Shown here piece after piece: positions 1,157 to 56,624 of a stretch of DNA of 64,000 nucleotides. Position numbers and translations under genes: made by a program. The stretch is from an uncultured archaeon (lineage in GTDB: Archaea; Thermoproteota; Nitrososphaeria; Nitrososphaerales; Gagatemarchaeaceae), in contig CAWFOU010000001.1 of the NCBI GenBank assembly GCA_963817525.1, positions 896,001 to 960,000 on the forward strand, written 5' to 3'. The stretch's first letter is position 1; every line of letters begins with the position of its first letter. Under the pieces are notes generated by a model, which saw nothing but the letters and a program-made list of their open reading frames with translations, was not told the DNA's origin and made no database searches.

Positions 1157-2185
1157 ATGGTCCCTCCGAAGATAAGCCTCTTTTCGAGCAAGAATCTCGA
1201 TCGAGACTTGTGGAGACAGCTTCTCGAAGGAAGCGTGTATGCCAATCTCTATCAGGACGACGACTGGGCCACCTTTCGCGAGACTGAAAGGGAGTATAGC
1301 ACCTTCTGCGTTGCCGAGGACGAAGGACAGCCGGTTGGTATACGCGTATGGAAACGCAAAATTCGCGTAGGATTTGTACTGGAGAGTGCGGGCGGACCGC
1401 TCTATTTTCCGGAGTCGGAGCTGCTCGCAAAACGCTTGCTGGAACGTGTTCTTCCTCTCGTTCGAACCGGTTGCATGGCTGGCAGCTTTACCTTTTCGCC
1501 GCTTTTCAATTCTCGCGTGATAACTGGCTTCGACGGAATAAATCCCAACAGGGTCACCTTCGCGATTGACTTGACAAAGAGCGCGGACAAACTCTGGAAC
1601 GGCATATCGAAGTCAGCACGGTGGAGTGTTCGCACAGCCGAACGAAGAGGAATCATAATCAAGGAGAGTGACGATTTCGAACAGTGGATTGACTTTCACA
1701 AAATACACCTTGAGGAGTCGAGCAGGAAGGGTTACGAGCACATAGCTCTCTCGGCGAGCGGAATCAGGTGGATATATGACGTTCTTCGTCCCAAAAAGAA
1801 ATGCGCTTTGCTTGTGGCCTTGTTGGACAACACGGTGGTGGCAGGCTCGCTGCTGTATGTTTCCCGAAACACCCTACATTGGGTGCGCAATGCTTCAAAT
1901 CCCAGGTATTTGGCATTCCAGCCAAACGACTCGCTTGCATGGAGTGCAATCATGCTCGGCAAAAATAGAGGGGTTTCGCTACTTGACTTGTTCGGCGCGA
2001 CGAAGGGGAAAAACCTTCCCGGAGCCGGCATCTATCAATTCAAGAGCAAATGGGGAGGAATTGAAGTGTCTGATCCGGTTTACATGACAGGCAAGGCATA
2101 TTCCATTGCTTCTCGGCTTCAGCGGTCGTCTCCGTTGGCAAGAAGTGTCATTGACTTCTTCAACGCATCAATCGTTCGCGCCTAA
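1157..2185 (+). CDS. FemAB/FemX-like GNAT acyl/aminoacyl-transferase
   Basis: IDLTKSADKLWNGISKSARWSVRTAERRG, PNDSLAWSAI, DLFG..GIYQFKSKWGG are typical of FemAB/Acetyltransf_6 proteins. Confidence 0.85.
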   Translation: MVPPKISLFSSKNLDRDLWRQLLEGSVYANLYQDDDWATFRETEREYSTFCVAEDEGQPVGIRVWKRKIRVGFVLESAGGPLYFPESELLAKRLLERVLPLVRTGCMAGSFTFSPLFNSRVITGFDGINPNRVTFAIDLTKSADKLWNGISKSARWSVRTAERRGIIIKESDDFEQWIDFHKIHLEESSRKGYEHIALSASGIRWIYDVLRPKKKCALLVALLDNTVVAGSLLYVSRNTLHWVRNASNPRYLAFQPNDSLAWSAIMLGKNRGVSLLDLFGATKGKNLPGAGIYQFKSKWGGIEVSDPVYMTGKAYSIASRLQRSSPLARSVIDFFNASIVRA

Positions 2186-2287
2186 GAGAGGCTTGCCGAC
2201 CTATCAGCGTCCTCCTCCACTAGACGCAGGACAAAGGCTGCCAATCCAAGTTGTTCGCGGAAGCAGATTAAATGAAAGCAGGGATTT

Positions 2288-3084
2288 TCAAGTTCGCCGC
2301 GCCTCAATGATTTCGCCTTTGGTCTCTGCACTAAACCCCAAAGTCCTCAATCGAGTCACAATGGGTCGTGGGTTCCTGTGGTATTCCACGGCTATGTCAG
2401 AAATTCGTTCAAAAGAAGTGTCAGGGGTATTGCCAATCAAATCGTACTCGCAGCCCTCGCAGTCAATTTTGAGGAAGACGTCTCGTAGATCATTGCTGTC
2501 CAGAAAAAAGCTCAACGATGAAGGTCCCAACCCTCCAGTCATACGTCTGTTGAACATCCGAATCTTCTCGCCTTGCTGGTTAAGTCTGACGTTTTCTAGC
2601 GCTATCCTAAATCGCTCAGGGTCAGGTTCGAATCCAAAAACAACGCTCGCCCCGGATAAGGCGAAGTCCAGAGAGCAATCGGCTATCGATGCCCCAACGT
2701 CAACGACCTCTCTCCCACTCAGGTCGCGTTTGCCATAGACCCTCATCGCGAATACTTCGTCCAATACGTGTGAATAAGCTCATCGATCAGCCTTAGCTTG
2801 AGGCCGTTCGGCGTTTCGACAACACATTCTCCATCCCGCAAAGTGTAGATGAAACCGTTCGCCGAGTTATACCGCCGATACAAACCTTCGTAGAATTTCT
2901 CGTGTTTAGTTTTCGAGAGCGGCAATTTTTCGCCGTCCCTGAATTTCGCTTCGCCAGTTGATAGCAAGCCGAAATAGATTCCTAAGACCTCTGGCCAATT
3001 TGTCACGTATCTATGGAGCATCATGAAACCCTGGAGACTTCTTAGGTGAGGCAACCCAAATTCCATCCATTCGTTTCGCAGCAC
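2288..3084 (-). CDS. FkbM-family methyltransferase, split by a frameshift near 2765
   Basis: VVDVGASIAD, GFEP, FLKIDCEGCEY; ORF 2743..3084 joins in another frame at a CA repeat. Confidence 0.8.
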
Positions 3085-53520: not shown

Positions 53521-53872
53521 GGGCCACTCCGCTCCCTTCGGGGTACTTGTCGACGAACTCTTCTACATTGTAGGTCTTCCCGCCGGCGCCCTCTATCTTC
53601 GCCCTCGCTGAGGCGGAGAAGGAAAAGGCGCCCACGTCGAGCTTCTTCTCGAGGTTGCCGGTGCCGAGGACCTTCCCTGGGACGAAGACCGCCGAGACGC
53701 CTATCCTTGAGAGGCGGGCCACATTGACCTCTGGCCAGGTGACCGTCCCCGAGGAGAGGTATCTCGCGGCGTCCCCCCATATCCCGGACTTGTCGCCGCG
53801 GGCCTTCCTCTCGAGTAGGACGATGCTGCTCCTCAGGAGCTTGTTCGCCTTGGTCAGCTTGAGCGCGGTCAT
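53510..53872 (-). CDS. rpl18e: 50S ribosomal protein L18e
   Basis: EVNVARL, VPGKVLGTG, FSASARAKI; start MTALK. Confidence 0.94.
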   Translation of the reverse strand: MTALKLTKANKLLRSSIVLLERKARGDKSGIWGDAARYLSSGTVTWPEVNVARLSRIGVSAVFVPGKVLGTGNLEKKLDVGAFSFSASARAKIEGAGGKTYNVEEFVDKYPEGSGVALVK

Positions 53873-54516
53873 TGTGCTGCCTTCTCCTCGACTTCCTTCT
53901 GGAGCTCCTTTAGCTTCTCTTCGAGCTTCTCGATCGACCTGGTGACTATCTCCTTCGCGGGCATCGTCCCGCTCGTCTCCACCTTCAGGATGAACGTCCC
54001 CTCGCCCTTGCCTTCCGTGAGCACCGACGCGGTCGCGGGCTGCCACTTTGCGTGCTCCTTGCCCCTGCCTAGCCTGGCGTAGGCCTCGAGCTTGACAGAC
54101 TGGCCGACCGCGAGCTTGACTATCGGGATGTTGGGACTGACAGGGCTGATGTCCCTGTCCTCGGAGACCAGGTCGCCGGAGACCACGGTGCGCGGCTTGT
54201 CCTTCGCGGTCGCGTCGAGCACCAGGAGGACGCGGCACTTTTGGCACCCGAGCGGGCTGCCGCAGTCGCACTTTTCTGGGAGGACGTACCTCTCCAGGTC
54301 GGTCTTCAGCGGTATCATGCCCAGCCTGTGGGCGAGAATCTCGTCGTAGAGGACAGAGGAGTTCTCGAGTATCACGATGTCGTCGATCGCCATGGAGGGG
54401 ACCTCCGAGATGCAGAAGCGCCTCACGGCATTAGCGTAGCTACGGTCGACGCCCTCCAGCTGCAGGGCGATCGTGTCCTCGGTCTCTTGAAGGACCTTTA
54501 CCTTAGGCGCTACCAA
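53869..54516 (-). CDS. rpo3: RNA polymerase subunit D (Rpo3)
   Basis: ANAVRR..EVP, NSSVLYDEILAHRLGMIP, GKEHAKW. Confidence 0.97.
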   Translation of the reverse strand: MVAPKVKVLQETEDTIALQLEGVDRSYANAVRRFCISEVPSMAIDDIVILENSSVLYDEILAHRLGMIPLKTDLERYVLPEKCDCGSPLGCQKCRVLLVLDATAKDKPRTVVSGDLVSEDRDISPVSPNIPIVKLAVGQSVKLEAYARLGRGKEHAKWQPATASVLTEGKGEGTFILKVETSGTMPAKEIVTRSIEKLEEKLKELQKEVEEKAAQ

Positions 54517-54785
54517 ATCTGGATATCACTCACCGTGGGAACAGAGATTTTACGATGCAATTCCTGGGGTTTAAAAGCCTTAGCCGGTCTTCTTTGGCTT
54601 GTCTTCCGCCAAACGGTGATTTGCGAGCGCGTCCCGCGTCGGGCGATGTGGTGCTGGGTGTTTGGTTTTGAAGCGCCACGTGAAGCTTCACGAAATTATC
54701 AAGTCACTGGCCTTTCGCAATCTAGCCCTTGAGATTTCATTGGGGCTTAAGTATCAAACGGACGTATTGCGTTCGAATCGGCAGT

Positions 54786-56168
54786 TTGAATGAGCCCTTC
54801 GCGGCGAAGAATCGAGAGATATCGATGGCAAGACGGGAGACCATCGGAAGGCATCGGGAGATGTCTTGTAAGACGTACGAGTTGAAACTAGACAAATCTC
54901 ATCTCTCGAACGAGAATCTTCATGCGCTCCACCGCCTTTTCTTGGAGGCCAAATGGTTCTACAACGCCATGCTGACCTCCCCGGGAGGGCCTAACGCATT
55001 CGATTACAAGCAGAAGGACGTAGTCGTACTCAACAAGAAACGAGGACCAGAAGTTCGTCGAATCGCGACATTGACCTCCCACATGCGTCAGTCTATCATC
55101 GATAGGGCGAAGCAAGCCATCAGGGGGCTCGCCGTTCAGAAGAAGAGGCACAGAGTTGGGGCGCTCAGGTTTACCAGCCAAATCTCATCAATACCTCTGA
55201 AGCAATATGGTCGAACATACGACATCAGGGGAGAAAGGGTGAAGATTCAAGGCATTAAACAGCCTCTTAGGGTAAGAGGGACTGATCAAATCCCTGAAGA
55301 CGCGGAGTTTACGTCCGCAGACCTGATCTTCCGGAGCGGAGACTACTTCCTCCATGTCACGGCGTACGAGAATCCCAAGACTGAGACTTCAACGAAGACG
55401 CCAAAGAAACGGGCAGTAGGCATAGATGCCGGAATCAGAAACCAACTCACCCTCTCTAACGGAGTTATCGTCAACTCGGATATTGACCTCCCCGCTCGAC
55501 GCATCGGGCGCCTCCAAAGGGAGCTGTCACGACGGGGGTTGAAACGAGGGAAGAATTGGTCGAAGACCAAACTCAAGCTAGACTTGACATACAATAAGAC
55601 GACAAATCGTCGCCGCGACGTAAGGCACAAGATTGTGAGCTGTCTCACGTCAAACTATGACGCTATAGCTACCCAACGCGACAATGCCAATTGGTGGCAG
55701 AAAATGTGGGGACGCCGGATAGCTTCCTCAGCGATTGGTGGGATAACAAGAGACCTGAGGGCAAAGCCTCACTTTCCCGTCGCGATCGAGAGGTTTGTTC
55801 CTACGACGAAACAATGTTGCGAATGTGGAAAGATTCGCTCGGTAGGTCTGGACGAGCGGACCTACAGCTGCGACACGTGCGGGCTGGTCATAGACCGCGA
55901 TCTCAATGCAGCCACGAACATGTGGCTAAGGATACCTGCGGAGCGCAGGGAATCTACGCCTGCAAACACGAAGGCCGCTACGGAGGAGATGATCGGATAT
56001 CTCAACAATATCCCATTTACTTCCGCAAGCCGTGTGGAGGAAGCAGGAAGCCACCAGTTCAAAACTGGTGGTAGCTCACGCTCTGCGGCCCCTTCTTCCG
56101 CCCTTCTTTCGCGTGGTGTCGTGGGGGATCGGTGTCGCGTCCTCGATCCTACCGATCCTGAACCCTGA
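54786..56168 (+). mobile_element. tnpB: TnpB RNA-guided endonuclease (IS200/IS605 group, no TnpA seen)
   Basis: RuvC-I VGIDAG, zinc finger CCECG..CDTCG, RuvC-III DRDLNAA; probable TTG start at 54786 after a cttaagta box. Confidence 0.93.
55930..56099 (+). ncRNA. Putative TnpB omegaRNA/right end with guide; 5' boundary approximate
   Basis: gaag-ccaccagtt-caa-aactggtgg-tagctcac matches the typical IS605-group right-end hairpin; following bases would be the guide. Confidence 0.65.
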
Positions 56169-56624
56169 CCTCGCGATGGCCCTGATGGCCGCCTGGGCGC
56201 CGGGCCCGGGTGTCCTTGGGCCCGTCCCGCCGACCGCCCTGACCTTGATGTGGACCGCGGTGATCCCCTTGCCCTTCGCTACGTCGGAGGCCGCGGATGC
56301 AGAGCGCATGGCCGCGTAGGGCGAGGCCTCGAACCTGTCCGCCTTTACGTGCCTCCCTCCCGAGGAGAAGGATATGGTCTCGGCCCCGGTGAGGTCGGTG
56401 ATGTGGACTATCGTGTTGTTGTAGCTGCTGTAGATGTGGACCACAGCCCACTTTTCCTTGAGGGACTCGTCCTCTTCGAGAGAAGGCGTTATCTGCCCGG
56501 TGGTGACCCTGACGGAGGCCTCCTCGTCCTCTGCTAGGTCCTCTGTGGTGGGTGCCTCCGCCTCCACTTCGTCTTCATCCTCCTTCTCGATGTCTTTCTG
56601 GAGCTCTTCTTCGGGGATTCCCAT
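56076..56624 (-). CDS. rps11: 30S ribosomal protein S11 with acidic N-terminal extension
   Basis: [44 protein letters not shown]. Confidence 0.97.

Follow-up and report, generated by a model that had tools for sequence, protein, structure and literature searches.

TnpB-omegaRNA systems of the IS200/IS605 family, such as those of ISDra2, IS608 and the solo 'IS1341-type' elements, are the closest described relatives of the locus analysed here. Homing, or retention of the element at its site, is established for bacterial TnpB. The locus lies in the window, a stretch of 64,000 nucleotides from an uncultured archaeon of the Gagatemarchaeaceae (assembly GCA_963817525.1, contig CAWFOU010000001.1, positions 896,001 to 960,000), where a tnpB gene is inserted between rps11 and rpoD and converges on rps11. 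It shares with IS200/IS605 elements two domains (OrfB_IS605 and the zinc-ribbon TNB), a profile-level resemblance to ISDra2 TnpB, the right-end stem-loop, the short conserved terminus and a predicted flank-derived guide, and one member of its clade (contig L048) lies beside a Y1 TnpA gene. Unlike them, it carries Gln at RuvC-II, in a segment seven residues shorter than that of canonical paralogues; it has neither left end nor TnpA; it sits inside the final codon of an essential gene, whose stop codon it supplies; and its junction is kept across lineages at synonymous divergences (dS) of ~0.7-1. This is a known kind of mobile element in an unusual placement, between two essential genes. We consider it fairly probable that it is a TnpA-less, immobilised IS200/IS605 element (tnpB and omegaRNA) which persists at rps11 by homing or retention.

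Other described systems resemble it in part. Altae-Tran et al. (2023; PMC10691335) describe catalytically rearranged (RIIr) TnpB clades, whose conserved RuvC-II substitutions are judged compatible with activity, and non-mobile clades fixed in lineages. However, a Gly replacement with an alternative Glu is described there, whereas the window clade has Gln, and the passages of that paper drawn on here contain no mention of stop-codon substitution. TldR proteins (TnpB-like nuclease-dead repressors), as described, are likewise derived from TnpB and combine a fixed locus and a fixed guide with the absence of a transposase. Homing endonucleases of inteins and group I introns are similar in concept, since they lie harmlessly in a conserved site of an essential gene that is also the nuclease target, and like the window element they are patchily distributed among close relatives. 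Here, however, recognition would be RNA-guided, and harmlessness comes from stop regeneration rather than from splicing.

The window protein matches the Pfam profiles OrfB_IS605 (PF01385, E 2.2e-13) and Cas12f1-like_TNB (PF07282, E 6e-11), both above cut-offs, which represent the WED/RuvC region and the C-terminal zinc ribbon of TnpB. A profile built from 29 homologues recovers the ISDra2 TnpB structures in the PDB (8BF8/8EXA/8H1J) with an E of 1.6e-25. The N-terminal motif KNxxI is kept among the homologues, and the RuvC-I Asp (GIDAG), a RuvC-II segment reading Q-R-D, the CxxC...CxxC zinc finger and the RuvC-III motif DRDLN are all present in the window copy. TTG 54786, invariant at four loci, is the likely start codon; ATG 54825 and ATG 54861 are alternatives. 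The candidate promoter GGGGCTTAAGTATCAAAC is nearly invariant in the window and in the metagenome contigs L047, L050 and L051 (alignment A3). The gene is single copy in its genome, where none of the other 8 TnpB matches exceeds 33% identity over most of its length. A scan of genome contigs with the TnpB protein alone retrieved one distant bacterial locus (33% identity), which is uninformative for this locus.

The right end was delimited by comparison with related elements at unrelated loci: L010 and L015 (both from a congener), L054 and L055 (other genera), L048 and L049 (metagenomes), the bacterial L046, and the paralogues L002, L003 and L007 of the same genome. In full, the window sequence reads GAAGCAGGAAGC-CACCAGTT-CAA-AACTGGTGG-TAGCTCAC, its last base being 56079. 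It is composed, in order, of GAAGCAGGAAGC (56040-51), a hairpin (56051-71; CCACCAGTT-CAA-AACTGGTGG) and the terminus TAGCTCAC (56072-79). The motif (G)TAG(C/T)TCAC or GTCAC is common to 12 related elements, whose sequences diverge right after TCAC. Covariation supports the hairpin: over the 5-bp base in the 12-sequence alignment, 98.3% of 60 cells pair and four of the five pairs change on both sides. None of 500 shuffles reached the observed score and slid controls paired at 35-57%. RNA folding of 220 nucleotides at the right end gave a z of -3.41; a search of 54400-56400 against Rfam gave no match with E up to 1. Since the homologues diverge straight after TCAC and the hairpin covaries, 56079 is the last base of the element and 56080 the first of the predicted flank-derived guide, the boundary proposed by the first-pass annotation.

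That annotation had also read the last bases of the element as the end of rps11, and the sequence and the S11 match bear this out. Read on the minus strand, the TGA stop occupies 56076-78 and the third base of the final Ala codon is 56079, so that rps11 ends ...CGC AGA GC|G TGA, with the G and the stop coming from the element. The insertion point lies one base inside the final codon, where relatives read GCG-TAA or GCG-TAG; similarity to them ends at 56078 on this side. The C-terminus of S11 is the same in relatives, and stop codons over 29 loci are TAA (15), TAG (13) and TGA (1). Contigs from three of four soil DNA runs, all from one study, bridge the right junction. None of the four runs contained a joint skipping the element or an empty allele at high identity, and their loose ends resembling empty sites come from other, more distant relatives.

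The predicted guide lies antisense to the conserved 3' codons of rps11, as had been proposed. Its one perfect 16-nucleotide match in the genome is its own site, and matches with up to three mismatches number 105 against 193 for a reversed control. Empty sites in relatives read, on the plus strand, ...TTAC|GCTCTGCGG. The bases 5' of the guide-matching sequence are TTAC in 14 of 29 empty sites and CTAC in 6 of 29, and all 20 guide bases are matched in 3 of 29. TTAC may thus act as the target-adjacent motif (TAM). TTAC is also the target of IS608.

In L010 the tnpB frame closes with the TAG that lies in TAGCTCAC; in many homologues the last residues are ...RW, followed by a stop soon after AGSH. 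In the window, L047 and the homologue P0003, the AGC-to-TAG segment is 20 nucleotides long, which places the TAG (56072-74) out of frame and lets the frame run 30 codons into antisense rps11. These final codons (56079-56168) bring the overlap of the two frames to 93 nucleotides. The window and L047 differ at 8 of the 31 positions of this tail, which therefore seems to be without selection. An alternative plus-strand frame across the hairpin (55691-56074) ends in ...NWW followed by the TAG at 56072-74, like the ...RW ends of the homologues, and marks the site of the reading-frame shift in the tnpB of this lineage.

On the other side, the block without counterpart in element-free relatives begins at about 54642. 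The sequence between this point and rpoD is native. It was aligned in seven rows (alignment A6: the window, L051 and five element-free relatives), and GCTTTTAAACCCCA, which holds the TATA-like TTTTAAA box at 54570-76, is invariant across them. The GGTGA complementary to 54530-34 is kept in all seven rows; CACGGTGAGTGA of the rpoD leader contains it, and its complement gives the TCAC at 54530-33. Box and GGTGA are the native promoter and ribosome-binding site of rpoD. In blastn comparisons homology to relatives breaks at ~54584-54595. CGACGCGG (54641-34, minus strand) matches the start of the spacer of relative L017, directly past its TAA. The native spacer, which probably starts at 54641, thus seems complete on the rpoD side, leaving an insert of ~54642-56079. 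With the stop of S11 restored and the rpoD promoter native, the insertion is harmless to both essential genes, as the first-pass annotation had supposed.

At its left the block begins with a decayed fragment of an integrase-core transposase. The intact 65-amino-acid fragment of L051 aligns to it by tblastn at 51% identity, with stops in the window sequence; the fragment is also decayed in L047 and is intact in L050 and L051. The intact version matches Pfam rve_3 with an E of 0.0024, below the curated cut-off. Neither a left-end hairpin nor TTAC was found on the left side of tnpB. The TTAC expected at this junction is missing, which fits a left end that was lost afterwards. Upstream of L010 and L015 there is no similarity to the corresponding region of the window. 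A shared octamer, AGCGCCAC, was considered as a left end and judged to be a chance match, since in the window it sits inside the transposase remnant. In L048 (3440-3470) and L049 (950-980), TTTAC precedes the shared left-end homology by 8-9 nucleotides, and the intervening bases differ between the two; those of L049, CCTCATTGA, nearly repeat its right flank CCTCATTGC (2348-2360). In L051 the transposase remnant is set apart from the native spacer by ~420 extra nucleotides (2021-2513), which include an opposite-strand open reading frame (ORF) of 89 amino acids (2091-2360, minus strand) with no significant family match. By comparison, the window arrangement looks like a deletion derivative of that of L051. 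In L015 (reverse strand) a second, partial TnpB 3' end (...IPNTSASLVGEAGSP) lies just downstream of the first right end, which suggests that related elements inserted in tandem or one within another.

A search of 5.8 billion proteins gave 196 TnpB homologues at E <=1e-10. The antisense-rps11 C-terminal tail occurs only in the three closest, P0001 (99% identity), P0002 (75%) and P0003 (75%). In L047, the contig that encodes P0002, the element likewise converges on rps11, and the junction, GGTAGCTCAC|GCTCTGCGGCCCC, is identical. L051, and L050 as a second sample of the same type, carry a TnpB homologue (83% amino-acid identity in its N-terminal part) beside rpoD. The block therefore recurs at this junction in at least three other diverged lineages (L047, P0003, and L050/L051 on the rpoD side), a recurrence that the first-pass annotation had named as a check. 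Among 40 relatives searched, none had a close TnpB homologue between rps11 and rpoD, the best match elsewhere being 48% identical, and the element is present at this locus in 1 of 23 searched genomes of the genus, the genome of the window included.

The ORF is intact in the window, P0001, L047/P0002 and P0003. Between the window and L047 the ratio of nonsynonymous to synonymous substitution rates (dN/dS) of tnpB is 0.19 with a dS of 0.72 (~405 codons), the adjacent S11 segment having a dS of 0.84 and a dN of 0. Against L051, the N-terminal 111 codons give a ratio of 0.09 with a dS of 1.06, rpoD having a dS of 0.51. The gene is under purifying selection. Over its last 150 nucleotides the window element is 93% identical to that of L047, compared with 80% over its whole length; this fits a constraint on an RNA or on the right end. 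The common transposase remnant indicates one origin of the block and not its mode of spread, because break repair in the course of homing would carry over the block in its entirety. The present distribution may go back either to a single ancient gain followed by losses or to spread through recombination or homing. No match to Y1 TnpA (PF01797) was found in the 95%-complete genome, while control genomes gave matches; this agrees with the earlier description of a solo TnpB. Of an autonomous or mobilisable IS200/IS605 element, the locus thus retains an intact right end, its left being occupied by the rve-type fragment.

The RuvC-II segment reads QRDN, as the first-pass annotation had observed, and its Gln aligns with the canonical Glu. 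Instead of the canonical D-E-D triad the protein therefore has the Asp of RuvC-I and RuvC-III together with Gln at RuvC-II. The Gln is present in 29 of 29 aligned clade members, with D201 invariant and D286 and D357 at least 90% conserved. It is also found in L048, where tnpB follows a Y1 TnpA gene (Pfam E 2.4e-39), and in L049, a 94%-identical derivative of L048 without TnpA. Six paralogues of the same genome keep the Glu and have 7 residues more after it. Since the Gln is clade-wide and includes a member beside TnpA, it corresponds to a rearrangement of RuvC-II in the whole clade and not to decay of this copy, which largely answers the doubt about nuclease activity that the first-pass annotation drew from the missing Glu. 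D286, two residues past the Gln, is a candidate replacement ligand. Altae-Tran et al. (PMC10691335) regard conserved rearrangements of RuvC-II, some of them almost confined to archaea, as probably active, and report non-mobile TnpBs with apparently active RuvC that are fixed in lineages; archaeal TnpBs are according to them numerous and rarely recently mobile. As far as described there, the 'rearranged RuvC-II' class appears to match the Gln clade.

These features can be assembled into a history of the locus. The element would have inserted in antisense orientation, 3' of a TTAC complementary to the last codon base and TAA stop of rps11, and its right end ...GGTAGCTCAC would have put back G and TGA. 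S11 is therefore unchanged and the essential genes are unharmed, rpoD keeping its native promoter outside the insert. The left end would later have been replaced by the integrase-type transposase fragment, which makes transposition impossible now. Transcription of tnpB towards rps11 may yield an RNA whose 3' part becomes the omegaRNA, with its guide from 56080. TnpB and this RNA would recognise and cut the empty version of this site with its flanking TTAC (TTAC followed by GCTCTGCGGCCCCTTC), and repair from a filled copy would re-copy the whole block, which amounts to homing or retention. A harmless insertion with a guide directed at a highly conserved coding end would explain its long persistence.

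Several observations weigh against this scheme. A 2-nucleotide deletion common to L050 (~855) and L051 (~3003; window ~55157), contigs from different samples, shifts the tnpB frame, so that the gene is dispensable in that lineage. The dS of tnpB is similar to or above that of its flanks and so shows no trace of recent homing among the lineages under comparison. In a tree of rps11-rps4 with 23 rows, the window and L047 fall together with seven relatives lacking the element into one unresolved radiation (94/99), in which the element-bearing lineages are neither grouped nor separated. The canonical Glu of RuvC-II is replaced by Gln, D286 being a candidate for the catalytic role. The TTAC proposed as TAM is drawn from empty sites only, and the right-end TCAC differs from it by one base, escape from self-cutting being assumed. 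Finally, the stop used by TnpB homologues is out of frame here and leaves a 30-residue tail without selection.

The element might instead be a nuclease-impaired, RNA-guided DNA binder adopted by the host in the manner of TldR. Bound to the 3' end of rps11 or to its own junction, it would modulate transcription across rps11-rpoD, for instance as a terminator or roadblock that separates two convergent units. Its fixed locus in several lineages under purifying selection, the change of Glu to Gln in a genome where six paralogues keep Glu, the missing TnpA, and a guide whose sole perfect match is the adjacent end of rps11 would all suit such a role. However, the Gln extends to the clade member beside TnpA, and unlike TldR the protein retains the RuvC-I and RuvC-III Asp and the zinc finger, with RuvC-II Glu alone replaced. 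Known TldRs are described as nuclease-dead and promoter-targeting, whereas this guide matches a gene 3' end in cis. The element is moreover patchy in a genus of which all 23 genomes keep the operon, and its tnpB is frameshifted in one lineage. We regard host adoption of this kind as unlikely.

A functionless relic is similarly improbable in our view. The insertion would then be a harmless dead end and its apparent constraint a leftover from a mobile past, in agreement with the lost left end and TnpA, the C-terminal frame change with its unselected tail, the frameshifted lineage, and the rarity of recent mobility among the numerous archaeal TnpBs (PMC10691335, as far as described there). The low dN/dS ratios over a dS of 0.72 and in the N-terminal third against L051, the intact ORFs of the other lineages and the extra nucleotide conservation of the omegaRNA region weigh, however, against absence of function. 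Still less likely is a main effect by antisense RNA, in which the tnpB/omegaRNA transcript pairs with the 3' end of rps11 mRNA and tunes S11. The convergent overlap of tnpB and rps11 is a fact of the sequence, but follows automatically from the insertion; in most relatives that have this operon the element was not found, and selection on the TnpB protein would be left unexplained. The geometry of the first-pass annotation, an element at 54534-56079 with TCAC on both sides, its own TTTTAAA box re-driving rpoD and an empty site of stop, 13 nucleotides and TTG, is practically discarded: two TCACs do exist at 54526-33, but the one at 54530-33 is the complement of the rpoD ribosome-binding site, kept like the invariant TTTTAAA in element-free relatives whose spacers are homologous to 54517-54641, and none of the 18 relatives measured has a 13-nucleotide spacer.

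The immobilised, possibly homing element that we favour is not the only one in this genome to supply a stop codon. For each right end, the length of the opposite-strand frame ended by the TGA of its terminal TCA was measured. Seven of the nine TnpB matches of the genome have a right end recognisable by motif and by linkage to the match; a motif-bearing site on contig C7 without a TnpB match (2 codons) was excluded. The frames are of 183 (S11), 305, 132, 206, 292, 19 and 0 codons. Five of the seven are thus 130 codons or longer, compared with 3.7% of 12,990 random TCAC sites. Besides the window element, those supplying stops lie at C7:655078 (L003), C1:466694 (L002), C1:317819 (L004) and C7:60090 (L007) of this genome (G000), and the genes closed include a presenilin-like membrane protein (weak match) and unnamed frames. 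The 132-codon frame is transcription factor S (TFS; NCBIfam TFS_arch, E 1.3e-23, profile positions 1-100 of 101). In 19 relatives TFS ends ...WR(S/Q/H/E/N/V)Y(S/A), mostly with a native TAG or TAA; the closest relative reads tcg TAG, and this genome tc|G TGA followed by the right end. Among 8 further elements in other genomes, two close long frames and six do not. The two are L010, whose right end closes the frame of a Cdc48-type double-AAA ATPase (at least 492 codons; Pfam AAA, E 1.4e-85), and L054, which closes a pilin-like frame of 172 codons.

It is conceivable, and we propose it only tentatively, that the conserved TCAC right end is an adaptation that lets this group of archaeal TnpBs settle in the final codon of conserved genes and persist there by homing. 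Antisense insertion 3' of YTAC, the complement of G and TAA or TAG, would regenerate G and TGA. The host genes would often be essential (S11, TFS, the Cdc48-type ATPase) and their conserved coding ends would serve as guide targets. This would be an RNA-guided counterpart of the strategy of inteins and homing endonucleases, lasting after the loss of TnpA and of the left end. A literature search found no mention of stop-codon regeneration by IS200/IS605 ends, which does not prove that it is unpublished.

Coordinates of the features are collected in Table 1. The tnpB gene is embedded in a minus-strand cluster of rps13, rps4, rps11, rpoD, rpl18e, rpl13, rps9 and rpoN. RpoD matches RNA_pol_A_bac (E 2e-17) and RNA_pol_L (E 1.2e-15) of Pfam and is 82-96% identical to its homologues in relatives. 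The length of the rps11-rpoD spacer was obtained for the 18 relatives mentioned above: 84-129 nucleotides in nine members of the genus, 239-798 in eight, and 37 in one from another genus. The long spacers include those of L018, L027, L034 and L036 (577-656 nucleotides), L029 and L030 (~664) and L035 (798), and in L026, L031 and L032 the spacer exceeds 1.3 kb. Several relatives carry differing small opposite-strand ORFs (149-176 and 153 amino acids) or larger genes in this spacer, which is a hot spot for inserted DNA in the genus. In all four soil DNA runs, some contigs match the window up to 54597 and continue into unrelated sequence; in two runs, contigs beginning at 54589 have other sequence ahead of that position. 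The 9-nucleotide overlap (54589-54597) may be the target duplication left by another insertion in strains that occur together; alternatively, the spacer may vary from strain to strain.

Table 1. Features of the rps11-rpoD junction, in window coordinates
Feature	Position	Strand	Remarks
rpoD (RNA polymerase subunit D)	53869-54516	-	TTG start 54516-54514
Native rpoD leader and rps11-rpoD spacer, outside the element	54517-54641	-	alignment A6
Inserted block (transposase remnant, tnpB, omegaRNA/right end)	54642-56079	+	1,438 bp; left limit known to within a few bases
Decayed C-terminal fragment of an integrase-core (rve-type) transposase	54644-54757	-	in-frame stops
Candidate archaeal tnpB promoter, GGGGCTTAAGTATCAAAC	54742-54759	+	~30-40 nucleotides upstream of the TTG; putative function
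tnpB coding sequence	54786-56168	+	460 amino acids from conserved in-frame TTG; frame open from 54729
Predicted 3' omegaRNA scaffold / transposon right end	55930-56079	+	conservation, motif, covariation
rps11	56076-56624	-	S11 Pfam E 5.9e-42; TGA stop 56078-76
Predicted omegaRNA guide	56080-56099	+	antisense to the last rps11 codons (GGRRGRRA)

The locus demonstrates that a TnpB element can sit without cost in an essential cluster of ribosomal-protein and RNA-polymerase genes, and its clade provides a natural Glu-to-Gln variant of RuvC-II. It may exemplify a long-lived TnpB without transposase or left end, as predicted if RNA-guided homing alone maintains such elements. Should the supply of stop codons prove general, it would account both for the sites at which archaeal TnpBs accumulate and for the frequent targeting of conserved coding ends by their guides.

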